NCBI GenBank assembly: GCA_963850305.1
Contig: CAWKKR010000008.1
Span: forward strand, 1,376,001-1,440,000
DNA: 64,000 nt
Direction of reading: 5' to 3'
Source of the DNA: an uncultured delta proteobacterium
Lineage (GTDB): Bacteria; Myxococcota_A; Polyangia; Polyangiales; Polyangiaceae
Shown: positions 24,844-39,805 of the stretch, one piece after another
Numbering within the stretch: the stretch's first letter is position 1
Layout: every line of letters starts with the position of its first letter
Position numbers and translations under genes: made by a program
The notes under the pieces: generated by a model
Told to the model about the DNA's origin: nothing
The model's input: the letters and a program-made list of their open reading frames with translations, nothing else
Database searches by the model: none

Positions 24844-26369
24844 ATCGGGGGGATGAGGTGTTTCTTCGGCGGCGTGGCTTCTGCCTTGTCGCGATACCGA
24901 TCGAAGCGCGCCGCCACTTCCGCGCGAAGGCGGTCAAATGGAATCACGGCGTCCACGACGAGCTCGCTCGCGAGCTTCGCGATGTCCACGTCGTTCCGGT
25001 AATCTTCGCGCAGAGACTCCACCAGCGCTGCCCGCTCGGGTCCGTCGGGAACTGCCTGGATGCGATTGTAATAAACGGCATTCACGGCCGCCTGAGGTCC
25101 CATGACGGCGATCGACGCCGTGGGCAACGCGATACACGCGTCGGGCTCGAAAGCCGGACCGCACATCGCGTAAAGGCCAGCTCCGTAGGCCTTGCGCACG
25201 ATGACGCTGACCTTCGGCACCGTCGCCTGGCTCACCGCCGCAATCATCTTCGCGCCTGCCCGGATGATGCCTTGCCGCTCCACCTTGGTCCCGATCATGA
25301 AGCCCGGAACGTCCGCGAGATAGAGGAGCGGGACATTGAACGCGTCACACAGCCAGATGAAGCGAGCCGCCTTGTTCGCGCTATCCATGAAGAGCACTCC
25401 GCCGAGGTGCTTCGGCTGGTTCGCGACGATGCCCACCGCGTGACCCTGGATCCGACCGAACCCCGTCAGAATCTCCCTGGCGAAGCGATCCTTGAGCGGC
25501 AAGAAACTGCCGTCGTCCACGACGTGATCGATGACCTCGCGCATATCGAATGCCTTGTTTTCGTCCGCGATGACGACGTCTGCGAGCGGGCGCAGTCCGT
25601 CGCGCGGCTCTCCGGGTCCGGTCTTGCCGGGCGCGCCGCGATGGTTCTGCGGCATGTACGACAGGTAGCCCTTCGCCCACGCGATCGCCTCGTCCTCCGT
25701 CTCGACCAGCACGTCTCCGCAACCGGAGACCGACGTGTGCATCTTTGCGCCGCCCATTTCCTCGAGGGTCACCTTTTCGCCGATGACCACCTCCGCCATC
25801 CGCGGCGAGCCCAGGTACATGGCCGCGTTTCCGTCCACCATGACCACGACGTCGCAAAACGCGGGAATGTACGCACCGCCGGCTGCAGACGGTCCGAACA
25901 GCAGGCAGATCTGCGGCACTCGTCCCGAGAGCGCGACCTGATTGTAGAAGATCCGCCCGGCTCCACGTCGGCCCGGGAACATCTCCACCTGGTCGGTGAT
26001 CCGCGCGCCTGCGGAGTCCACGAGATAGAAGAGCGGACACTCGAGATCCCGTGCCACCTCCTGAATCCGGAGGATCTTCTCGACCGTGCGGGCACCCCAC
26101 GAGCCCGCCTTGACGGTCGAGTCGTTGGCCATGAGCGCGACGATCCGACCATCGATCTGGGCAGTTCCCGTGACGACTCCGTCCGCGGGCAAATCCTCTG
26201 CGCATGCGTTCGCGAGCAACCCGTCCTCGACGAACGAACCGGAGTCCACGAGTCGCGCCACGCGCTCGCGTGCGAACAGCTTGCCGTCCGAGGTGTTCTT
26301 CTCGTGATACTTGGTCGCCCCACCTGCGCGGGACGCGGCTTCGAGCGCTCGCAGCTCTTCGTCCTTCAC
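24840..26369 (-). CDS. acyl-CoA carboxylase carboxyltransferase subunit
   Basis: GKLFARER, DSAGARI, AAGGAY, EMGGA, DVPGFMIG, RKAYGAG. Confidence 0.94.
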   Translation of the reverse strand: MKDEELRALEAASRAGGATKYHEKNTSDGKLFARERVARLVDSGSFVEDGLLANACAEDLPADGVVTGTAQIDGRIVALMANDSTVKAGSWGARTVEKILRIQEVARDLECPLFYLVDSAGARITDQVEMFPGRRGAGRIFYNQVALSGRVPQICLLFGPSAAGGAYIPAFCDVVVMVDGNAAMYLGSPRMAEVVIGEKVTLEEMGGAKMHTSVSGCGDVLVETEDEAIAWAKGYLSYMPQNHRGAPGKTGPGEPRDGLRPLADVVIADENKAFDMREVIDHVVDDGSFLPLKDRFAREILTGFGRIQGHAVGIVANQPKHLGGVLFMDSANKAARFIWLCDAFNVPLLYLADVPGFMIGTKVERQGIIRAGAKMIAAVSQATVPKVSVIVRKAYGAGLYAMCGPAFEPDACIALPTASIAVMGPQAAVNAVYYNRIQAVPDGPERAALVESLREDYRNDVDIAKLASELVVDAVIPFDRLRAEVAARFDRYRDKAEATPPKKHLIPPM

Positions 26370-26392
26370 GCGACGTTCCTAGGGTTCGAGGC

Positions 26393-27397
26393 TCATCGTT
26401 CGGCGATCAACCGCTCTACGAGCGCGTCCAGTTTCGGCAGATGCACGGCATCGTAGCCGACCATGACGTCGCGCACCGTCCCTCTTCGATCGATCACGAA
26501 TACTGCGGGAATCGCCATCGCCTGGTACGCGGAGACCGTCTTTCCGGACTCATCCGACGCCACGGGGTATTTCATCCCGAGCTCCGAGGCCGTGGCTGCG
26601 GCTTGATCGGCGGGGTCCGCCGTAATCGCGATCATTCGCAACCCTCGCGCCGAGTATCGGTCGTGCCACTGGTTCATGTGAGGGACCAGTGCGCGGCATG
26701 CGACGCACCAGGGCGCCCAGAACTCCACGACCAGAACCTGCCCCCGCTGCGCCTGGAGTGTCGGCTTGAAACTCCCATTAGCGATCTTGAGTGCATCGAA
26801 GGGCGGCGCTGGTTGATCGACGAAGGTCATCCGATAGATCTCGTCGCGTTCCGGCAGCGCACCCAGGATCACGGCAACGAGGCGATCTGCTCCGCGTCGC
26901 TTCAACGCCAGGCCGAGCCGCGCCCCCGCGTGCTGCCCGGACACGATCCCGATCACGTCCGATGGCGATGCCACGGGCTGATCGTCGATGCGCATGACGA
27001 GGTCTCCGGCAAGGATCCCCGCAGCCTCAGCCGGCGACTTGGGCACGACTCGGCCGATGCGCACCCCTGCTTCCGCTGGCGCGGCGGCTTCGAGCTCGAC
27101 CCCGAGCCATCCGCGGGCGTCGTTCGTATCTTCATTGACCACGGCCTCCGTCTGGGGCGCGGCGCTGGCTGCCGTCGGGACGTCGCGCGGCGCCGCCGCT
27201 GCGGCGGTTACGTCCGGCCGCGCCCGACTGGGTGCCAGGACTGCTGCGGGAGGCGCGCTCACGGGAGCTGGCGTCGGAGCGGCGAGCGCGGCGCCGGGAG
27301 GTGCTGTTACGGAAGGTGCTGCGACGGGCCGCCGATTGGCGCAGCCGACTGCGATGAGAACGGCGAACGCGGCAGAACGGCCTTGAGGAACATGCAT
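26393..27397 (-). CDS. PDZ + TlpA-type thioredoxin lipoprotein
   Basis: Lipobox VGC, PDZ (GWLGVEL...SPAEAAGILAGD), FWAPWCVAC. Confidence 0.85.
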   Translation of the reverse strand: MHVPQGRSAAFAVLIAVGCANRRPVAAPSVTAPPGAALAAPTPAPVSAPPAAVLAPSRARPDVTAAAAAPRDVPTAASAAPQTEAVVNEDTNDARGWLGVELEAAAPAEAGVRIGRVVPKSPAEAAGILAGDLVMRIDDQPVASPSDVIGIVSGQHAGARLGLALKRRGADRLVAVILGALPERDEIYRMTFVDQPAPPFDALKIANGSFKPTLQAQRGQVLVVEFWAPWCVACRALVPHMNQWHDRYSARGLRMIAITADPADQAAATASELGMKYPVASDESGKTVSAYQAMAIPAVFVIDRRGTVRDVMVGYDAVHLPKLDALVERLIAER

Positions 27398-27420
27398 TTG
27401 GACCTTGCTACCATGGCGCG

Positions 27421-27939
27421 ATGGTGTGCTCGCGTCGAGGCAAGGTGAGATGGGGGTTCGCCGTGTGTCTCTTCGTCTGGCCCTGGGGCGCAGCTTGCGC
27501 GTCGCCTGCGACGACGGCCCTCGCGCCGGTGCCGCCCACGGCCAGGTGGGCGCTCCTCGACACCGCGCGCCGGTGGCCGAGCGCGAGCCCGCCTTTCCCT
27601 TCTCGCGGTCACGGCGTTGGAGACTACTTGATCGACGTACACGTCTCGCCGTCGAGTCTCGCCGCGTACGTGCGCGGCGATCGCGAGGGGATGTCGGGCG
27701 CCGTGACGATAGCGGCCTTTCACCGTCGTGAGGCCGACGGGGCCCTTGGCTCCATTTTCGTGATGACCCGCTCAGCCGTCGGGAAATTTCGGTTCATGGT
27801 CGTCGACCCGGAGGGCCGTCTTTCGGAGGACGGCCCGCTTCCCCTTTGTGCGCGGTGCCACGCGGAAGCGTCTCGACAGCTCTTCGGGCTCCCGAACGAC
27901 GTCCCGAACGCGACAGAAAAGAGCGCAGCCGGGAATTGA
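27421..27939 (+). CDS. exported monoheme cytochrome c (P460-like)
   Basis: Signal-like N-terminus, C-terminal CARCH heme motif; start uncertain. Confidence 0.6.
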   Translation: MVCSRRGKVRWGFAVCLFVWPWGAACASPATTALAPVPPTARWALLDTARRWPSASPPFPSRGHGVGDYLIDVHVSPSSLAAYVRGDREGMSGAVTIAAFHRREADGALGSIFVMTRSAVGKFRFMVVDPEGRLSEDGPLPLCARCHAEASRQLFGLPNDVPNATEKSAAGN

Positions 27940-27977
27940 CGGCTATCTCTGGACGTTCGGTGGGTGAGAGGAAATGT

Positions 27978-28186
27978 TACAAAACATGACGACCCGCGGG
28001 TGCTTGCACACCAACGCGGGCCATCCGAAAGCCTCTCAAAGGACTGCGAAAAGAGCTAAAAAAGCTAGGAAACCAAGGAAGCCTAAGGTTCGGTTAATTT
28101 AAGGGCCTGCTCGGAGCAGGCGAAAAAAAGGGGGAAAGTCAAAAGTCCCGTGATGCGACGTCGCTGACTTCACGAGGGCTATCGGG
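27978..28186 (-). ncRNA. candidate sigma54-dependent small RNA
   Basis: No ORF in the track; three GC hairpins separated by U/C-rich linkers; terminal hairpin followed by TGTTTT; sigma54 motif immediately upstream. Confidence 0.55.
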
Positions 28187-28196
28187 CAGGTCTCCT

Positions 28197-28212
28197 AGCA
28201 GGGGTCGTGCCA
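28197..28212 (-). promoter_or_regulatory. sigma54 (-24/-12) promoter
   Basis: Minus strand TGGCACGACCCCTGCT, exact GG-N10-GC spacing. Confidence 0.65.
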
Positions 28213-28441
28213 GGAGCGCAATCCCTCGGGTAACACGGCCAAAACCGGGCTCTCCGGAGCAGGTTTTCGACGCAGCGCGGTGCGCCCCACGACGCCCCTG
28301 TCCGAAGACGCTCCCGGTATCGCAAAGTTTGCGAACTCGCTCCTGCAGGGCCGGTCGTTCGCGACGTCCGTGGTTGGCAGATCCGCCGAGGCCACGCGAT
28401 TGTGATATTACGCCGTCCCTCGGCGGGCCATCCGTCGGTAC

Positions 28442-28539
<98 letters not shown>

Positions 28540-28754
28540 TCGGGGACGAAAGCGAGCGTGGCAACTCGGAGCGACAGGGTTCCGATGCGTCTCGCGATGA
28601 GCATGCCTTCCGTGGATCTGACGGTCGTTCGGATGGAGCGTGGGAGTGCTCGTCGAGCCAGCATCCCGTCCCGCAGGGGGTATCCATGCTCCGGCCCCTG
28701 TGACATCCTTCAAGCAGTCGACCAGTCTCAGCACCAAACAAAGGGAGGTATCGG

Positions 28755-29777
28755 ATGGCGAACGACGCGAACAACCCGATGAAGCCTCTCTACAAGCGGC
28801 TCGGCGACCTCGGTCTCACGAAGGCGTACGTACAGGGGAAGGTGCTCCCGAGCTGGTGGAGCGACGAAGCAGCGACGAACCCCGCCGGGTTCTCGGAGGC
28901 AGTCGTGCTCTTGTCTCGCCATCTTGGGCTCGACAGCGAGACGCTGCGAGGCTCCGGCGAGATCCGACTAACGGGTGAGCCGATGGTCAAATTGAAGAAG
29001 GCGGCTAACGCTAACGACGATGATCTCGCCGTCGCTCGGAGGCTCGCGCTCCAGGTCGCTCGACTCGCCTTGCTCGGCGTGTCTGCGCCAGCGCCCAAGG
29101 TGCCCTCTTCGGGAATCGAGCTGCGCCAGCAGATCCTCGACCAAGATCAGCCATGGGTCAGTCTCGAAACGCTGCTCGACTACTGCTGGTCGATCGGGAT
29201 TCCGGTGCTTCACGTGTCTGCGTTCCCAAAGAACGCGAAGCGCATGCACGGTCTCGCTGCAAAGGTCGCCGGTCGTCCCGTAATCGTGATCTCCAAGGAG
29301 GTTCAGCAGCCGGCCTGGCTGCTCTTCATCCTCGCCCATGAGTTGGGCCACATCGCGCTTGGGCACGTCGAAGAGGAAGACGCCGTCGTCGTTGACGCCG
29401 AAATTGACCAAGATAGCGCCGACGACGAAGAGCGTCAGGCGAACGCCTTTGCGTTGGAACTGCTTTGCGGAAATGCACAGACCCGTTTTCGAGCGGAGCG
29501 CTGGCCGAAGGCAGCCGTGCTTGCTCAGGAAGCGGTCAGGATCGGCCAGCAACAGCACATCGATCCGGGTCATGTCGTCCTGAACTACGCGCACTCTATG
29601 GGCCCCGAGTTCTTCGCGGTCGCCAACGCGGCGCTCAAGAACTTGGAGCCAAACCCTGACGGTGTTGGGACGATCCGAAAAAAGATGGCGGCAGCGCTCG
29701 ACTGGTCGCTCCTTCCCACCGAGGCCGCTGAGTTCGTCTCTCGGATGACGCAGGCAGAACTCGCCTCGGCAGCGTGA
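28755..29777 (+). CDS. ImmA/IrrE-family (M78) metallopeptidase
   Basis: GGAGG RBS; FILAHELGH zinc motif followed by EERQANAFA. Confidence 0.9.
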   Translation: MANDANNPMKPLYKRLGDLGLTKAYVQGKVLPSWWSDEAATNPAGFSEAVVLLSRHLGLDSETLRGSGEIRLTGEPMVKLKKAANANDDDLAVARRLALQVARLALLGVSAPAPKVPSSGIELRQQILDQDQPWVSLETLLDYCWSIGIPVLHVSAFPKNAKRMHGLAAKVAGRPVIVISKEVQQPAWLLFILAHELGHIALGHVEEEDAVVVDAEIDQDSADDEERQANAFALELLCGNAQTRFRAERWPKAAVLAQEAVRIGQQQHIDPGHVVLNYAHSMGPEFFAVANAALKNLEPNPDGVGTIRKKMAAALDWSLLPTEAAEFVSRMTQAELASAA

Positions 29778-30403
29778 AGGCGTTCTGCGACAACGACATC
29801 CTCCACAAGCTCTGCGCGTTCGATCTCCTCGAAGACGCGACGGCAGGAGCCGGGCTTGCACCGGGCGACCTGGTGGCCCTTCCGACCGCGAAGTTCTTCT
29901 TTCTTCGGAAGCAACCAGACAAGGGTCGGCAGCGCTTCGGTGACCTCGTGTACCAGCGCATTCACGGTGCGTTGAACGCGGCTGGGGAGGTGGGCGTTCA
30001 GCTACACCCCGAGGACGAAAAGATCCTGATCAACAGGCTCGGCATCGACCAGGGGGAGGCGCTCCTGTTCTCCTACGCCTCTCGGGACGAGGGTTCACTG
30101 CTTACGGGCGATAAGCGAAGCCTTCTGGCGCTCACGGCGGAGCCGTCGTGCAGCGACATCGTTGCTCGCTTGCAGGGTCGAGTCGTCTGCCTGGAGCAGC
30201 TCGTGCTCGGCGCAATCGCACGCGCCGGGTTCGTGTCGGTTCGAGAAAGGATCGTGCCCGCGATCGGGTGGGACAAGGTCATGCGGGTGGCCTTCGGATC
30301 GGGCCTCAGCACCGAGGAGGGCTCAGCCGTGGCAGCGCTCGAATACTACGTCGCCGACCTGCGCAAGCAGACGGGTTCGCTGCTGCGGCAGGAAAGCGTG
30401 TAG
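29774..30403 (+). CDS. PIN-like domain protein
   Basis: FCDND, IDQGEA, LLTGDKR acidic PIN-type motifs; GTGA overlap with the peptidase stop. Confidence 0.75.
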   Translation: MKAFCDNDILHKLCAFDLLEDATAGAGLAPGDLVALPTAKFFFLRKQPDKGRQRFGDLVYQRIHGALNAAGEVGVQLHPEDEKILINRLGIDQGEALLFSYASRDEGSLLTGDKRSLLALTAEPSCSDIVARLQGRVVCLEQLVLGAIARAGFVSVRERIVPAIGWDKVMRVAFGSGLSTEEGSAVAALEYYVADLRKQTGSLLRQESV

Positions 30404-30629
30404 CCTGACGCCATGCTTGTCGCGACGGGAGAGTGCCACCGCGGCTGGGCGAGAGAGCCGCCGCGACGGCATCGACGGGAAGATCGAGGAACTTGAGCGC
30501 GCTCAAAGTCCCAATGTGAGCAACTGACCTGGTCGCAGCGTTGTGTCGCCGGTCCACTCCGGATATCGTGCCCGCGCGGGTGGGTCGGTACCGAGGTTCG
30601 ATCGAGGTCGAACGGGAGCCGTCACGTCC

Positions 30630-31298
30630 GTGACGAAGGCCGTCATCTTCGATTGCGACGGCACGATCGTCGATAGCCTCGGCCTCGCGAACGAGGTTCT
30701 CTCGGAGTACCTGGGTGAACTCGGTTTTCAGGTCACCCACGCTGAGGCGGCGGCGCGGTTCGGAGGCGGGAAGCTCGCCGATTCAATCGCGAAGTTCGAG
30801 GCTGACTTCGACCGGAACCTTCCCGAGACGTTCACCACGGAGCTGCGACGCCGACGGGACGTAGCTTTCCAATCCCGGTTGATGCCGTTGGAAGGAGCAG
30901 AGGAAGTCGTTCGCAGCCTGGATGTGCCCCGGTGCGTCGCCAGCAACGGGCCTCGTGAGCAGACGGAGCTGAGCCTCCGTGTCACTGGTCTCTTGCCGCA
31001 CTTCGAGGGCCGAGTGTTCTCAGCCTACGACATCGGCGTCTGGAAGCCCGACCCCGGTCTGTTCCTTCACGTCGCAGATGCACTTCGGTTGCGCCCCGAG
31101 GACTGCCTGGTCGTCGAGGACAGCCTTCCCGGAATCGAGGCGGGCCTCGCCGCTCGAATGAGCGTGGTGGCTATCACCTCCACCGAGCCACCGTTTCGTA
31201 TTCCTCCCGGCGTTCGCCGGATCCGACGACTCGCCGAGCTTGCGGACCATGTTCCCTTCGATCCGCCACGCCGAGGGGGCTCGGCCGATCTCCGGTGA
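30630..31298 (+). CDS. HAD-IA family hydrolase
   Basis: IFDCDGTIVDS, VASNG, KPDP, VEDS. Confidence 0.92.
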   Translation: MTKAVIFDCDGTIVDSLGLANEVLSEYLGELGFQVTHAEAAARFGGGKLADSIAKFEADFDRNLPETFTTELRRRRDVAFQSRLMPLEGAEEVVRSLDVPRCVASNGPREQTELSLRVTGLLPHFEGRVFSAYDIGVWKPDPGLFLHVADALRLRPEDCLVVEDSLPGIEAGLAARMSVVAITSTEPPFRIPPGVRRIRRLAELADHVPFDPPRRGGSADLR

Positions 31299-31346
31299 GG
31301 AACAAGCATTCGCGGCGTGGTGGGCTGCGAGGAAGGGGGAGCGGCG

Positions 31347-31610
31347 TCACGGTTGAAGCACTGGGTATCGTGCCGACCTCCGGCGCCCTGGAATCTGCCG
31401 TCCTGGAAGATCCTCCATCCCCCAGAGGGCCTTCTCACGGGCGATGTGCGGCAGAGCCTCGACATCGGCGGCGCCGGGCGCACCTGAAGGCCGCGACGCT
31501 CCGGAGTCCTCATGAACGAGCCCTCCGTGATTCTGAGCTAGGAGCCCGACGCTGATCACCATGAAGACCGCCAAGGCGACGAGGAGCATGGTCTTGGTGG
31601 TCTTGGGCAT
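31347..31610 (-). CDS. small membrane-anchored hypothetical protein (possibly a fragment)
   Basis: MPKTTKT followed by a hydrophobic helix. Confidence 0.35.
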   Translation of the reverse strand: MPKTTKTMLLVALAVFMVISVGLLAQNHGGLVHEDSGASRPSGAPGAADVEALPHIAREKALWGMEDLPGRQIPGRRRSARYPVLQP

Positions 31611-31665
31611 CGGCACGGCTTCCGGGATGGACACCGCCGCCCCGAGAAGGTTCCGGTGGTGCCTC

Positions 31666-32061
31666 TCACGTCAGGAAGAACCGAGCCAGCGACATCCCGA
31701 ACGCGAAGCAGGCCCCGCCGAAGAACGTCGTGAGCCTCGTGGTCTTGATTCCCCGCCGCCTCCGCCTCTCACCGAAGCGGTGCATCACGACCCCGGAGAT
31801 CACCGGGTACAGAGCGAGCCCCACTAGCCGGAGAGGAACGCCGCGGGTGATCCGCGATGGCAGAACGTGGGCGGAGATCGCCCCGACCAAGCCGCCGAGG
31901 AGGACATAGCCGACACCTGCAAGAATGGGGTCGGCCTCTTTGCTCTCCCTCGCGCTGTGCTTGAGGGACTCGACTCCGAGTTCGATCAGAACCTCGAATG
32001 CTAGCTGGAGAAGGATCTCTCCCAGGAACCAGATGGCGAATTCGAGCAGAAGAGTGAGCAT
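31666..32061 (-). CDS. membrane protein
   Basis: 131 aa with about four hydrophobic segments. Confidence 0.75.
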   Translation of the reverse strand: MLTLLLEFAIWFLGEILLQLAFEVLIELGVESLKHSARESKEADPILAGVGYVLLGGLVGAISAHVLPSRITRGVPLRLVGLALYPVISGVVMHRFGERRRRRGIKTTRLTTFFGGACFAFGMSLARFFLT

Positions 32062-32302
32062 GGTTCGTTCGCCGTCGGGCCTTCACGAGGAGACGACGTC
32101 GTTGGTCATGGAAGGGTACGCCGGTCTTCCCGTGGTCACGCTGATCACCCTGGTCATCCAGGAAGACGACGGCACCGTGGCCACCGTTTCCGTGCCCAAC
32201 GAGCAAAGTCGGAACATGTTCCGGGCTTGACCCGGGTGGGTCGGGGCCATGACGCGAGCTGCCCGTGGACCCGCCACCCCCTTCCGGGAGATGCTCCCCC
32301 CA

Positions 32303-32680
32303 ATGCGCACGGTAGGGAACATCCTCTGGCTGGTCTTCTCCGGCTTCTGGATGGCCGTGGGCTACGGCCTCTCGGGCGCTCTCCTGTGCCTGACGATCGT
32401 CGGCATTCCCTTCGGCGTCCAGGCGTTCAAGCTCGCGGGGTTCACCCTCTGGCCGTTCGGGAGGAAGGTGATCGATGCCCCTGGCGGAGGCGGCTGCTTG
32501 TCCGTCGGGTTCAACCTGCTCTGGCTCGTCCTCTTCGGCTGGGAGCTGTTTGTCGGCCACCTCGTGACGGGGCTGCTCCTGTGCATCACCGTGATCGGGA
32601 TCCCGTTCGGCATCCAGGCGTTCAAGCTGAGCGTCCTGGCGCTCTGGCCGTTCGGGAAGATGATCGTGGAGGACCGGTAG
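32303..32680 (+). CDS. YccF-domain membrane protein
   Basis: Duplicated N.LW...GW...LC.T..GIPFG.QAFKL...LWPFG motif. Confidence 0.92.
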   Translation: MRTVGNILWLVFSGFWMAVGYGLSGALLCLTIVGIPFGVQAFKLAGFTLWPFGRKVIDAPGGGGCLSVGFNLLWLVLFGWELFVGHLVTGLLLCITVIGIPFGIQAFKLSVLALWPFGKMIVEDR

Positions 32681-33103
32681 TCAGGCCGTGCGCTTCGTCG
32701 GGTACATCCCCGCCGTGCTCCGTGGCATCAAGGTCGAGTGGGACATCCCGGTCGAGATCACCGACGAGAATCCGCCGGGCGATGCATCCGCAAGATGAAC
32801 TCGAACGTCTTCGCGTCGGTCGGCTTCGACGTCCGTTTCATGTTCAACCTCACCGGCCCGGAACGAGAACATCTCGGACACCAATGCGGGAAGACGTCGT
32901 TCATCCGAGGGGCGCGTTGATCTTCGCGAACGAGACCGAGACCTGGTTCTGGGTGCAGGCGGGGGACGAGGAGTGAGCTTGTGGTTCCTGATGAAATATC
33001 AGGGAGCCGTGTACCAGCTCGTGGTCGTCGTCCCGTTGTCGCTGGCAGCGTAGTGAGCCGCGAAGACGGGGGGAGCGGTCGTGATGTCGAAGACGACGAG
33101 AGG

Positions 33104-33352
33104 CTACGAACCGCTCCCGGCGACGGGCTCGGAATCGGCGGCGGGCCTGTACTCCCGCAGGTCGATATAGCTCACGATGTCGAAGAGCGGACCCAACGTG
33201 AGAACAAGCGTTTCTCCGTCGATCGGCGTCCGTGTCACGACGCGACATTCCTTCTGATACTCGTATGTCTCCAGCTTTCGGAAGCGGAAAAGCGACTCGC
33301 GAACGATGTGGCAAGCATCGAAGCTGGGAAACCCTTCGCGAAGGTAAGCGGA
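33104..33352 (-). pseudogene. C-terminal gene fragment (F.K..Y.YQ.E.R motif)
   Basis: FRKLETYEYQKECRVV...LTLGPLFDI without a plausible N-terminus. Confidence 0.35.
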
Positions 33353-33642
33353 TCGGCGACGTCCCGTCCTTCGGGGAAGCACTGGCAAGCCGCGAAGAGG
33401 CCCACCGCTTCGACCCTGACACGGGGCCGGTCGTGCTCGAGCTGCCACCAAGGGGAGCTCGAGCTCCGGCCGTGCCCCTCCGCCGATTTGACGAAAACAC
33501 CGAGCTCACGGTCGTCGAGCGTCCGCCGTTTCGGCCTTCAGAGCCGCCGGTTCGTGAGGCGCTGCACCCGTTTGATGACATCGAGGAGAAGACGACCGTC
33601 GATGCAGTGCCGCTCCGTCCGTCCGAGCCGCCGAAGCGGTGA
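33232..33642 (+). CDS. Pro/Glu-rich hypothetical protein
   Basis: Repeated RPSEPP motif; start uncertain. Confidence 0.35.
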   Translation: MSRRDIPSDTRMSPAFGSGKATRERCGKHRSWETLREGKRIGDVPSFGEALASREEAHRFDPDTGPVVLELPPRGARAPAVPLRRFDENTELTVVERPPFRPSEPPVREALHPFDDIEEKTTVDAVPLRPSEPPKR

Positions 33643-33750
33643 ATGGCGAGGCGGAGCGCACACGCGAACGCGCGGCGTCGGACTCTGGCGCAATTCGCGT
33701 GGCACCGTCAGTCTCCGTGTCGATCTTTCACACCCGAACGTTGGCAGTGC

Positions 33751-33966
33751 TCAGCCAGTTTCGGTCCGCGACACTCGCGTCCCCCACGATCGGTACTTGC
33801 TCGCAAGCTTGCCCGTTGCGTCGAGGATCCCGACCTTGCGGAGCATCTGCAATTTCTCTTCGCGCGACGGGCGTTCGATCGCGGCAAGAAGATCCTGTGG
33901 CGACCAGACGCCGAGAGCCGCCTGCCGGCCGACGCGCCTCTTCGTGCGTTTACTCGTCTTCGCCAT
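33751..33966 (-). CDS. small basic protein, putative antitoxin partner
   Basis: 71 aa MAKTSKR...LRKVGILDATGKLASKY; start overlaps the end of the upstream ART-like gene. Confidence 0.6.
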   Translation of the reverse strand: MAKTSKRTKRRVGRQAALGVWSPQDLLAAIERPSREEKLQMLRKVGILDATGKLASKYRSWGTRVSRTETG

Positions 33967-34470
33967 AGCGTCCGTCCTTCCGCACCGGCCACACTGCGAG
34001 GATGTTGCTCGGCTCGCGCACGCACAGCTGCACGTGAGCTCCCTCGAACACTCCGCTGCGCGTCCAGAGCCTCGGCATCTTCGCTTGTTGTAGCGGCACG
34101 AAGACCGCCCGGCAACTGTCGACCATGCGACCGTCCCGTGCCAAGAGCTCGTAGAGCCAGTTGAAAGCGGCGCAGTCGAGGTACTTGTGATTGTTCGCGT
34201 TCCGAGACGCACGAGGGCCCCGACGACCGCAGCTTCGTCGCCGTACCTCCGATGCGCCCACCACCACGCTTGCTGCGGCGCGAACTCCCAGAAGTAGATC
34301 CCGTGCCCGAGCCAATCGTCGTCATTCTCACTGACACCGAAGGCGTCGCCGCGGATGAGCTTCTTCGCGGTGGACCGTCGTGTACCGTGGAACGCGACGA
34401 GCGTCCGGTCGTAGTCGAACGCGGTTTGTCTCGTCGGCACCTGGGCCGACGCTTGCTTGGACCCGCTCAT
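33950..34470 (-). pseudogene. ADP-ribosyltransferase-like toxin gene with internal frameshift/deletion
   Basis: FHGT...SENDDDWLGHGIYFWE in one frame and YLDCAAFN...HVQLCVR in another; junction at about 34200. Confidence 0.65.
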
Positions 34471-34484
34471 TGCTTCCGTCCGTC

Positions 34485-34885
34485 CTATCGGGTCACGGGG
34501 AACACGGGCCCGTCCTTCGCTGAGCCCGTGAGGGTCCACCAGAGGTGCAGGACGTTCCGCAGGTGTTCCGGCGTGACGAAGAGCTGTGGATCCATCGTCT
34601 TGTTCCTCGGAGCCCAAGCAGTTTCGAACCTTTCGTCCGGGAACAGGTCAACGTTCCACTTCCAGCGATGAAGGTCTGAGCCGACCCGTAGCCCGCCGAG
34701 GTACCGAGAGCATGTTGCGAGAACTTGTCGCTCGACGACGCCATACCTCCACGAAGGAGATCGAGGATCGTGCCGGAGCGGATGGCTGTACGCCATTTAG
34801 AGCTGCAACTCTCTGTCTGTGAGCACCTCGCGTCGTCGCCGAGGTTCTTTCGGGATGTCCAAGTCCGGCAGGCGCACCGTGACCC
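34485..34885 (-). pseudogene. tyrosine recombinase/integrase remnant
   Basis: REVLTDRELQL*MAYSHP...SRYLGGLRVGSDLH...PRNKT...WW...GPVFP; in-frame stop at about 34797; N-terminus and catalytic C-terminus absent. Confidence 0.65.
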
Positions 34886-34949
34886 ATCAGCGACGGCGGG
34901 ATGATTTCGGACGGGGCGGGATTCACGCTGGAGCGCAACACGGAGGTTG

Positions 34950-35126
34950 CGCTTGGCAGAGCTGCGGGACAGTCTCTTGCTCACGGATGGCGGCCAGCGC
35001 CACCTTGGCCTTGAATGCTGCGCTGTGACGGGTGCGGGTGCTTTTCATGATTTCTGCTCCTTTTTCGAGGAGCAGGCGCCACCTACACCACCTTAGCTGC
35101 TGGTCCGAATTTTGGGGTCCACTTCA
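34950..35126 (-). mobile_element. IS3-family left-end remnant
   Basis: IR TGAAGTGGACCCCAAAATTCGGACC from 35126; orfA start MKSTRTRHSAAFKAKVALAAIRE at 35048, truncated. Confidence 0.8.
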
Positions 35127-35267
35127 TCGGTCCACTCGTCAACGCGGTCGGGGGGCGCGTTCGTCGATTCAGCGAGATTCATGCCAATTTTGCGGCTGTC
35201 CATGGGGTCCATGTTGAACTACGCTCGGAAGAACCGGGGCTGGTCCGGGGTTGATGGTTGACGAACG

Positions 35268-36038
35268 ATGGTCTGGAAGCTGACCCCCAAGGAGCACCGG
35301 GTGTACCCGCGGAATCCGCTGGTCGCTGTCGTTGCCGACCTCCGGTACCATCCGATCCTGAAGATCGGGAGCAAAGTGCCCGACTTTCAGGAGGCGGTCC
35401 GGAGCGTCTTCACGGAGTACCAGGAGCAGCCTCAGCAGTTCGTCACCGTGCAGCCGTTCGGTCTGATGCAGGTGTCCCAGGGCATGGCGCACATCTTTCG
35501 GAAGAGCAGCGGAACGGCGGCGCTGAGCCTGACTACCACGTCGCTCACGCTGGACTCCAGGCGGCACGCCAGCCGGGACCAGCTCATCTCGGAAGCGTGT
35601 CTCGGCTTCGACGGACTGCTTGGCCTTTACAGCCCAGTCAACGCGATCAGGTTCGGTCTCAGGTACATCAACGTGATCGACCGCCAAGAGATCAATCTTG
35701 CGCTGGGAAGGAAGGTCGCGTGGACGGACCTGATCACGCCGACCTTTTTCTCAGTGCCATCCGGTCTGGCGGACGAGCATGGGACGCTCTACGGCGTCGA
35801 GGTCAGCTCGCCCATGGACGAAGGTGGGCTCACCGTTCGGTACGGACTCATGCAAGATCCGAAGGATGGGCGAGAGAAGTTCCGCTTCGATTCGGACCGC
35901 TACGTCGATGCGCCCGTGGAGCAGAGCCAGATCCGGGCCTTGCTCGCCCGGTTCGCCGACGACATCTATTCCGTGTTCATGGAAGCAAAAGCGCCGGCCT
36001 TGGAAGAGTGGATGGAGAAGGGGGACGCGACATCATGA
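35268..36038 (+). CDS. TIGR04255-family protein
   Basis: YPRNPLVAVVADLRY, RFGLRYINVI, FDSD motifs; 256 aa. Confidence 0.85.
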   Translation: MVWKLTPKEHRVYPRNPLVAVVADLRYHPILKIGSKVPDFQEAVRSVFTEYQEQPQQFVTVQPFGLMQVSQGMAHIFRKSSGTAALSLTTTSLTLDSRRHASRDQLISEACLGFDGLLGLYSPVNAIRFGLRYINVIDRQEINLALGRKVAWTDLITPTFFSVPSGLADEHGTLYGVEVSSPMDEGGLTVRYGLMQDPKDGREKFRFDSDRYVDAPVEQSQIRALLARFADDIYSVFMEAKAPALEEWMEKGDATS

Positions 36039-36370
36039 GCCAAGAGATCGTACCGATGTTCACGCTGGCGCTGTCGTGCAGCATCCCCTTGCAACCGACC
36101 GTCCACCTCGCCATTTCGAGCACCCGTGGCATCGAGACTCCGGCCCCTCCGGATCTCCCCCTGCCGACCTTCTCGACGCCGCCCTCTGGCAGGATGCTCG
36201 TCCACGTTGATTCACGGGAGGCGCTCGTTCGTGCATCCGCCGACCTGGTTCGAGCCCTGGCGACGGCTCTGCCCCAGAACCCGGATGATGAGCGACTTGT
36301 GGCAGCTCGTGTCGCCGAGGTCATGGGTGCCGAGAAGCCGAGGCCACTCAGACGGAGGCTCGGCGGGTAG
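36035..36370 (+). CDS. hypothetical protein, putative antitoxin
   Basis: 111 aa; ATGA overlap with the upstream gene and TAGTG overlap with the downstream gene. Confidence 0.7.
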   Translation: MSQEIVPMFTLALSCSIPLQPTVHLAISSTRGIETPAPPDLPLPTFSTPPSGRMLVHVDSREALVRASADLVRALATALPQNPDDERLVAARVAEVMGAEKPRPLRRRLGG

Positions 36371-36951
36371 TGGCCGGGGAAGATGGAAGGTGGCCGCCGG
36401 TCTACGACGCCGACGACCTCGTCGCTCAGATCAAGGAGTTGACGACGCGACCAGACTTCGAGTCGGTCTTCTATGAGTGGCGGCTCGACAGGGCTGTCCA
36501 ACCCCTGACCGATGTCTGTCAGGGCGACGTCGTCAGGCTGGCGAGCGAGGTGCCCGTAATCGGGGATGACGGGCAACCCGGGACGATTTCGAACGCTACC
36601 GGCATGTGGATGGTCCTGGGAAACACGTGTGACTTCGACCGGGACTTCGATGACGGTCCATGGACGCACGTTGCACCCCTCGTGGATCTCGGCGGACCGG
36701 ACGTCGGGCAAACGCTCCGTGATGCTCTCCGGAAGTACAGCCAGTTTAGGCGCTTCTACGCTCCCCCCTGGGCGGACGGGTCAGAGCATCGGTACCACGT
36801 CGTCGAGTTGCCCCTCATGGTCTCCATCGACAAGCGGGCGTTCTCCGGCGTCGCCCAGGTTCAGGCCCGCCTGAGCCGGCCGGCGTGGATCCTGCTCAAC
36901 GCTTGCCTCGTGCGGTTCCTGGCCCGAGACGACGGTCGGTACGCTGCGTGA
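36370..36951 (+). CDS. hypothetical protein with PemK/MazF-like QGD...TCD motifs
   Basis: VCQGDVV...MVLGNTCDFDR...HVAPL pattern. Confidence 0.7.
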   Translation: MAGEDGRWPPVYDADDLVAQIKELTTRPDFESVFYEWRLDRAVQPLTDVCQGDVVRLASEVPVIGDDGQPGTISNATGMWMVLGNTCDFDRDFDDGPWTHVAPLVDLGGPDVGQTLRDALRKYSQFRRFYAPPWADGSEHRYHVVELPLMVSIDKRAFSGVAQVQARLSRPAWILLNACLVRFLARDDGRYAA

Positions 36952-37085
36952 CGAGGAGTTTTGCCACCAGCCCTGGCAAAACTCGGAACCAGCACCCGCA
37001 AATCCCAGGCAAATCCCCGAACGCACCCCTGACCGGGTGCTGGCTCAAGCCGTGGAAATACTTACGTTTCGGGGCTCTCCCGCCA

Positions 37086-37153
37086 GTCTACGGAACCGAA
37101 AGTCGGAAGTTCGAATCTTCCCGGGCGCGCAAAGGAAATCACAGGGGATTTCG
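37086..37153 (+). repeat. attR: 68-bp direct repeat (tRNA-Arg 3' fragment)
   Basis: Identical to 28472-28539. Confidence 0.95.
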
Positions 37154-39166: not shown

Positions 39167-39443
39167 GAAGCAATTCCTCGTCGAGCTGGATGAATCTTGC
39201 GCCCGCGACCTGGAGCGCGTGGCGCCATCGAAGAGCCGCAAGCGGTCCGAGTTCGTGCGACTCGCGATCCGTCACGCCGTCGATCTCGCGCTGGATCGCG
39301 AGACGGCAGCGGCGTACGCGCGCCAGCCGATGCCGCTCGGCCCGATCGCGGCGGATCTCGTGGGGTGGGACCCGCACAACGCGCTGGCTCGCCCCATCCG
39401 GAAGCGACTGCGAGGGAAGCGCACCGCCAAGAGTGCCGCGTGA
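39165..39443 (+). CDS. ribbon-helix-helix antitoxin
   Basis: MKQFLVELD...RSEFVRLAI...AYARQP. Confidence 0.8.
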   Translation: MKQFLVELDESCARDLERVAPSKSRKRSEFVRLAIRHAVDLALDRETAAAYARQPMPLGPIAADLVGWDPHNALARPIRKRLRGKRTAKSAA

Positions 39444-39805
39444 TTGCAAAGACGAGGGCGGCCGAGCCACGGCAGTTCGACGTCTTCTGGGCGTCCCTCC
39501 CGGCGCCCGTGGGGCGGCGTCCCGTGCTGCTCCTCGGTCGCACTCCCTCCTTCGAGTATCTGAGCCGCGTTCTCGTCGTGGAGGTTACCACGACGATCCG
39601 CGGCATCCCGCAAGAAGTCGTCCTCGGCAAGCGCGAGGGCCTTCCGCGCCCGTGTGTCGCGAACCTCGACGCGCTCAGAACCATGCCGCGTGAGTTTCTC
39701 GCCGATCGGCTCGGCCGGCTCCGGCACGAGCGGCAGGTCGAGGTCAAACGGGCACTCGGCCACGTCCTCCTCTGGCCGGAGCTCACGGAGCTATCACGTG
39801 AGTAG
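39440..39805 (+). CDS. PemK/MazF-family toxin
   Basis: GRRPVLLL, VTTTIRGI, ANLD, GRL; GTGA overlap with the antitoxin. Confidence 0.88.
   Translation: MIAKTRAAEPRQFDVFWASLPAPVGRRPVLLLGRTPSFEYLSRVLVVEVTTTIRGIPQEVVLGKREGLPRPCVANLDALRTMPREFLADRLGRLRHERQVEVKRALGHVLLWPELTELSRE

Follow-up and report, generated by a model that had tools for sequence, protein, structure and literature searches.

The minus strand of a 64,000-nucleotide stretch of DNA from a Polyangiaceae genome (the window) carries, at 28212-27978, a promoter-like sequence that points into a stretch without an evident gene, raising the question of whether a stand-alone RNA is encoded here and what it might do. A preliminary description had proposed an unannotated sigma54-dependent small RNA (sRNA). 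Its sigma54 box, second hairpin, pyrimidine tracts, terminator stem, and U-tail were all recovered at their minus-strand positions, and the AT enrichment is real (GC content 53% versus 60–77% in flanking windows). The stretch was also said to be free of ORFs, which holds for the sense strand inside the predicted RNA, where no ATG ORF occurs; antisense to it, however, a 38-codon K/R-rich ATG frame spans 27986-28102, and GC-rich spurious ORFs overlap the 5' end. An upstream activator site (28333-28290) and a divergent tRNA-Arg(ACG) gene, both absent from that description, complete the locus:

28321-28333, minus strand: part 1 of the upstream activator site (consensus YGCAA-N3-TTKCR), lying 120 nt ahead of the -24 box
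28290-28303, minus strand: part 2 of the upstream activator site (consensus TGACA-N4-TGYC), at a distance of 30 nt to part 1
28197-28212, minus strand: predicted sigma54 -24/-12 promoter, with the presumed sRNA start near 28186
27981-28186, minus strand: predicted CUU-repeat sRNA, 206 nt, 11 CUU units, U 32%, A 15%
28178-28170 and 28153-28146, minus strand: arms of the proposed hairpin 1, letters present, stem unsupported
28105-28121, minus strand: central hairpin (hairpin 2), z -4.1, conserved at genus level
28030-28104, minus strand: weakly structured CUU/GCUU-rich linker with the genus-conserved word CUUCCUUGGUU at 28081-28071
27981-28025, minus strand: intrinsic-terminator-like hairpin and U-tail (stem 28025-27988, U-tail 27986-27981), z -4.3
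28442-28516, plus strand: tRNA-Arg(ACG) by ARAGORN (Rfam: tRNA, 28442-28515), divergent neighbour of the sRNA and synteny anchor
27421-27939, plus strand: cytochrome P460-like gene, convergent, behind the sRNA terminator and outside the RNA
26393-27397: PDZ-TlpA gene near the sRNA locus

The sRNA has tRNA-Arg(ACG), an M78 gene, and the P460-like and TlpA genes as neighbours. The top ESM Atlas clusters for the P460-like gene bear PF16694 (score 0.96); a Pfam search of the same gene was without match. As this gene is convergent, the sRNA cannot be its leader. On the other side, an island of approximately 8.6 kb lies at the 3' end of the tRNA-Arg gene (28517-37134), closed by an exact 49-bp repeat (28472-28520 = 37086-37134) and containing IrrE/M78-like, HAD hydrolase, YccF-type, and TIGR04255 genes; no integrase was found among the part of its ORFs that was scanned.

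The motif TGGCAC-N5-YTGC has a single occurrence in the window, the box at 28212-28197, and among 202 sigma54-like sites of the genome this box is followed by the highest number of CUU triplets (11). In a scan with a matrix built without the own locus, the activator site was the top match of the genome, and of ten matrix matches it is the sole one followed by a sigma54 box, a ranking that suggests an activator with few targets. The genome contains rpoN and about 31 sigma54-activator domains (E < 1e-40).

Folding of the 221-nt stretch gave a z value of -3.9, beating all 200 shuffles. This signal derives from the central and the terminal hairpin, both confirmed as described; no gain over shuffles was obtained for the segment of hairpin 1 (z +0.06) or for the linker (z +0.77). 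With a chance-level fold and arms that vary in the genus alignment, hairpin 1 was rejected as a structural element. The terminal hairpin 28025-27988 was not listed by a simple terminator scan.

BLAST analysis of 61 genomes matched the 3' part of the sRNA in the own genome and four congeners, all from one genus, plus two weak matches to promoter-side words only. The BLAST comparison suggested earlier thus succeeded within the genus (five genomes), but gave no match to the RNA between genera. A pattern for the 3' half matched in 5 of 383 genomes, four inside the genus and the fifth being G177. Anchoring on the tRNA located the element in six of the seven genomes of the genus; in G005, the divergent side ends at the contig end and the promoter was found across the tRNA. 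A metagenome pattern yielded 15 matches with four homologues (L037, L039 [partial], L043, and L044), of which the three full ones, one identical to the G002 copy, were added to the genus set. The alignment of eight close homologues shows no variation in the sigma54 box, in CUUGGUU, or at the terminator base. TGGCACG and CCTGC of the promoter were found in 8/8, as were GCAA and TTGC of activator part 1; GACA of part 2 is invariant as well and begins, at fixed spacing, 19 nt after GCAA-N3-TTGC. The 11-nt word CUUCCUUGGUU is kept in most genus members. In the central hairpin, which is missing in L013, three of nine pairs change on both sides among the eight sequences. Together, the two helices are 97% paired with four two-sided changes (2/500 shuffles; slid controls 40–58%). 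Because only eight related sequences are compared, covariation support for the two helices is modest, and the conservation of stems anticipated in the preliminary description applies to the central hairpin and the terminator, but not to hairpin 1.

Beyond the genus, the distribution of the sRNA module was traced by DNA patterns and synteny. The module pattern, composed of the two-part activator site and the sigma54 box with no RNA sequence included, matched in 120 of 383 Polyangiaceae genomes (41 of 89 genera; reversed-pattern control 2), a tally that includes G307, which is flagged unpublished and absent from the other counts. The module occurs nearly always once per genome, two genomes having two matches. 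Downstream CUU was examined at 69 of 122 pattern places, and in 61 of these promoter-picked loci at least nine CUU followed within 250 nt (leaving out the eight loci from which the pattern was derived, in 53 of 61), compared with 299 of 20,000 random windows; site-to-box spacings were 82–102 nt in seven of the eight failing loci. The pattern undercounts, given that five of five missed large genomes (11.5–16 Mb) bear the full module, four of them with spacings outside the pattern range. Among the 80 matches listed for a first loose contig pattern, L083 alone was a clear member, with the module and 13 CUU.

The flanks of tRNA-Arg(ACG) were compared at 55 loci in Polyangiaceae and 35 in sister families of the order, taken from 112 listed places. 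Within 600 nt of the tRNA, 29/55 versus 0/35 loci had a strict sigma54 box, and 26/55 versus 0/35 had a box with at least nine CUU (random windows: 2/20,000). Among 77 member loci, 72 have a complete tRNA-Arg(ACG), which is divergent, set apart by a single inserted gene, or following on the sRNA strand, and 69 have a P460-like or PDZ-TlpA gene. One gene family is inserted between tRNA and sRNA promoter at 11 loci, among them L269-L271, L290, L297, L298, L302, L305, L308, and L309. In many relatives (L274, L278, L295, L331, and others; 16 loci in one cluster) the tRNA is directly followed by a tadA-like deaminase gene, named from sequence motifs, for which tRNA-Arg(ACG) is the expected substrate; in the own genome the tadA-like gene is located about 108 kb away (G000:C8:1512852).

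In activator part 2, positions beyond the search pattern are conserved across 61 loci (G 59/61, C 61/61). Spacings between activator site and box group around 86, 98, 109, 120, 130, 142, and 156 nt, corresponding to a phasing of approximately 11 nt (R = 0.82, n = 18, roughly one value per genus; period picked from seven tried). DNA looping of a bound activator to the sigma54 polymerase predicts helical phasing, and the distances observed are in agreement with this expectation.

By eye, no relation is apparent between RNA bodies of different genera, and what persists are repeated (G)CUU units. As the 28- and the 73-member set were both filtered for at least nine CUU, the raw CUU excess is partly built in and less weight is given to it than to word contrasts. 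In the 28 members, CUU occurred 455 times versus 304 in dinucleotide shuffles, and CUU, CUUA, GCUU, CUUC, UCGCUU, and CUUCCUU were the leading enriched words. In the 73-member set, GCUU was present in every member (490 seen versus 134 expected from mononucleotide shuffles) and CUUCCUU in 42 (65 versus 5); UCCUU was also enriched, and GCUUGGCUU was found in 19/73. Triplet counts were 1229 for CUU, 849 for UUC, 538 for UCU, and 480 for UCC; CUU leads the enriched 3-mers, and GGA is outside the top 12. The pyrimidine tracts had been called anti-SD-like, but CCUCC was depleted (31 seen versus 57 expected; CCUCCU 10 versus 16; 73 members) and the tracts are thus not typical anti-SD sequences. Adjacent CUU units favour a 4–5 nt spacing (320 versus 218 expected) without 3-nt codon phase (147/184/167), and the A content ranges from 6 to 19%. 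The 5' word GGGCUGC occurs in 29/73 members; as GGGCUGC(R)GC it is located about 20 nt into the RNA, the own locus excepted.

No conserved ORF was found on either strand of the RNA. The antisense ATG frame is missing in 16 of 33 members and of unrelated length in the others; a small basic antisense protein was rejected on this ground. CUU was predicted to be more open than the rest of the RNA in 33/33 members, with other U-rich triplets equally open; in GCUU, the G and C are often predicted to be paired (unpaired probability 0.19 and 0.31, respectively). A hairpin plus U-tail ends the sense strand in 61 of 73 nonredundant members and the antisense strand in 7 of 73. The stem sequences are unrelated between genera, and the median RNA end is at 234 nt, about a dozen calls representing early false stops. 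With promoter, phased activator site, strand-specific terminator, and non-coding repeats all conserved in these comparisons, an unannotated sigma54-dependent sRNA is the best reading of the locus, and we consider it very probable that such a gene exists.

The module pattern was absent from 30 genomes of sister families of the same order, and in 301 genomes of the phylum it matched nine times, always in Polyangiaceae and never outside the class. Within the class (301 genomes), there were five matches beyond Polyangiaceae: two look like chance, and three are divergent from an Rne/Rng gene and followed by a short terminated stretch. The Rne/Rng gene was then sought in 30 chosen genomes and found in 29; a box behind a similar activator site was located divergently beside it at 14 of 29 loci (one doubtful box left out), i.e. 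in 14 of 24 other-order genomes and in none of five from sister families of the order. Fifteen Rne/Rng-linked RNAs (the three and, after removal of a near-duplicate and a truncated sequence, 12 from the 14), assembled with no CUU filter, had CUUA, GCUU, and AGCUUA as top words (AGCUUA 13 versus 1.1), and several hold just 2–5 CUU. Judged from activator site and word alone, the tRNA-linked and Rne/Rng-linked RNAs may share ancestry across the sister-family gap that separates their occurrences. In the own genome, the Rne/Rng gene lies about 110 kb from the sRNA.

An Rfam 15 search over 26000-30000 found the tRNA and no match on the sRNA at E ≤ 5; no known housekeeping RNA covers the candidate and, as anticipated, no RNA family could be assigned. 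For 12 Polyangiaceae and eight other-order loci, the search returned only tRNA and unrelated subthreshold matches. The comparison drawn earlier with Pxr (RF01812) is apt for the promoter type but for nothing else. Pxr is described as a myxobacterial intergenic RNA with a predicted sigma54 promoter, an upstream enhancer, and a 3' terminator (PMC5568312, PMC5684412). It differs in being 108 nt long and alignable across genera, with a C-run loop (PMC5568312), and in being placed behind the activator gene pxrR/nla19 and known from Cystobacterineae only, according to the text available; unlike Pxr, the sRNA here is not behind an NtrC-like activator gene. A genome search with RF01812, in which 150 of 1361 candidates received a score and which had no positive-control genome, gave no match at E ≤ 1; a phylum-wide search, also without positive control, gave 0/151 and is given no weight. 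Identity with Pxr was rejected for lack of a model match, other neighbours, and other sequence (compare the available text of PMC5568312, PMC5684412, and PMC11928866). MXnc1, a candidate M. xanthus sRNA compared by description only, is likewise intergenic, myxobacterial, and Hfq-independent (10.1101/2025.09.11.675593).

CsrB, CsrC, RsmY, and RsmZ resemble the predicted RNA in poor sequence conservation, variable short repeats, and an own promoter and terminator (as described in PMC11882849). Their repeat is GGA rather than (G)CUU, and CsrA was not found in the genome. CrcZ titrates Hfq/Crc by A-rich repeats. CrcZ and NrsZ of Pseudomonas share the sigma54 promoter, and NrsZ is reported to depend on an enhancer-binding protein and to vary in repeat number (PMC4253122); in contrast to both, the RNA here is A-poor, has words of 3–6 nt rather than repeated stem-loops and no Rfam match, and occurs in a genome in which no Hfq was found. 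LhrC of Listeria has several CU-rich single-stranded motifs, an internal hairpin plus terminator, and is Hfq-independent, but pairs by CCC-containing motifs with AG-rich SD regions (PMC13350326), whereas the present gene occurs once per genome behind a sigma54 promoter and its RNA is depleted of CCUCC. FopS/GibS with RbpB in Bacteroides are sRNAs of a bacterium using small RRM proteins; FopS differs in being multicopy, about 65–70 nt long, with a conserved seed, and in acting by pairing (PMC11697453). No description of a CUU-repeat RNA was found in the literature searched, including the accessible text of the review PMC8538405, subscription journals being mostly beyond the search. Those regulatory RNAs of myxobacteria for which we did find descriptions belong to Myxococcus and its suborder. 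The sigma54-dependent sRNA family seen here, with its new repeat word, is widespread and apparently undescribed so far. It has one copy per genome, occurs in at least 41 of 89 Polyangiaceae genera and, it appears, in other orders as well, and escapes BLAST comparison of different genera.

As to function, we give an even chance to a stand-alone sRNA gene whose product titrates an RNA-binding protein via (G)CUU in a CsrB-like manner. A single enhancer-binding protein, bound to the two parts of the upstream site, would turn on the RNA of about 200 nt in response to a signal. The working parts of this RNA would be many short single-stranded (G)CUU units that draw a sequence-specific RNA-binding protein off its mRNAs, a role played by GGA repeats in CsrB/RsmZ. 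Many short words in variable number and order, with no family-wide seed, would fit the design of protein-titrating RNAs; Csr RNAs are described as unconserved in sequence with GGA repeats in common (PMC11882849). Hfq (PF17209), CsrA (PF02599), and a cold-shock domain were not found in the own genome (94.8% complete), which has four RRM genes, making RRM proteins the candidates; that one of these small proteins is the titrated partner is a guess. A cold-shock protein was rejected as partner, its gene being found neither in the own genome nor in four of five congeners scored; across Polyangiaceae, the domain was detected in 43 of 60 genomes. Against titration, CUU and GCUU are not visibly enriched before the start codons of the genome (crude gene calls), where a CsrA-like partner would have its sites, and AAGGA(G)G leaders are open to pairing by CUUCCUU and UCCUU. 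The frequent predicted pairing of the G and C in GCUU also counts against it. An RRM partner is further disfavoured by the Bacteroides RbpB RRM motif, reported to be G/U/A-rich with a C/U-rich probe unbound (10.1101/2021.04.27.441718). If titration applied, the sRNA would point to a missing global RNA regulator of these bacteria. Extended to the whole class, a further kind of protein-sequestering RNA with (G)CUU/AGCUUA repeats, controlled by one ancient sigma54 activator and exposing a global post-transcriptional regulator, possibly an RRM protein, is conceivable but somewhat doubtful.

Rather more doubtful, yet still a serious candidate, is that the same gene acts by Hfq-independent pairing, with redundant CU-rich seeds on AG-rich leaders or lysine-codon-rich starts in the manner of LhrC, for which such seeds working without Hfq are described (PMC13350326). 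The enriched CUUCCUU and UCCUU would suit this role, CUUCCUU fitting AAGGAGG with one wobble. AAGGAG is enriched at -15..-5 in the own genome (48 sites), where it is used as SD; glnA leaders are AG-rich in many Polyangiaceae, and the 11-nt word is maintained in most of the genus. For the two described M. xanthus sRNAs, Pxr and MXnc1, Hfq-independent contacts with mRNAs are reported close to the SD (10.1101/2025.09.11.675593). The depletion of perfect anti-SD words and the top word of the other orders, AGCUUA, which is not SD-complementary, argue against pairing. The target tests, although crude, point the same way. The complement of the 11-mer occurs in no gene common to the own genome and five congeners, two sites being common to two sister genomes only. 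The target prediction proposed earlier gave no duplex with start regions clearly beyond shuffles: the best over 3072 start regions had -51.7 kcal/mol compared with -49.4 to -58.5 in six shuffles, the first percentile being slightly stronger than in all six. glnA ranked in the top tenth in 3 of 22 genomes (median percentile 0.3). Single-seed targets and glnA are thus not supported by complement, duplex, and rank tests. If pairing applied nonetheless, the sRNA would be a broad chaperone-free regulator; under either reading, activator and partner can be tested directly by way of the conserved site and repeat.

It is unlikely that the transcript serves general RNA machinery (RNase E/G, Rho, or ribosomal protein S1), and not a dedicated regulator, as a decoy or guide. 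Its U/C-rich, A-poor, weakly structured body and the other-order module beside Rne/Rng (14 of 29 loci) would be in line with it, but the excess of CUU over UUC, UCU, and UCC favours a specific word, and in Polyangiaceae the neighbour is tRNA-Arg, with the own Rne/Rng gene far off. Instead of an independent RNA, the locus could hold the leader or an attenuator of some downstream gene or encode a small basic protein antisense, a reading that is highly improbable and largely refuted already: the K/R-rich antisense frame exists here and a TlpA gene or tRNA follows on the same strand in some relatives, but the downstream gene is convergent at this locus, neighbour and direction vary by genus, and the antisense frame and CUU spacing behave as noncoding. 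An equally remote reading, a silent or DNA-level element, would agree with no transcript having been seen for the sRNA, but hardly with a strand-matched promoter, a phased activator site, and same-shape terminators with unrelated stems.

Some further features of the genome were recorded. Its most CUU-dense stretches are the antisense strands of small Lys/Ala-rich histone-like ORFs starting with MAAKK or similar (G000 C6:~220400, C8:~1039700, and C1:~134700), ORFs that are possible pairing partners of the sRNA. In the window, the gene at 39197-39805 (plus strand) encodes a PemK/MazF-like toxin domain of a toxin-antitoxin system (PF02452, E = 5.5e-12), and a tRNA-Ile plus tRNA-Ala pair at 2207-2416 is typical of an rRNA spacer.
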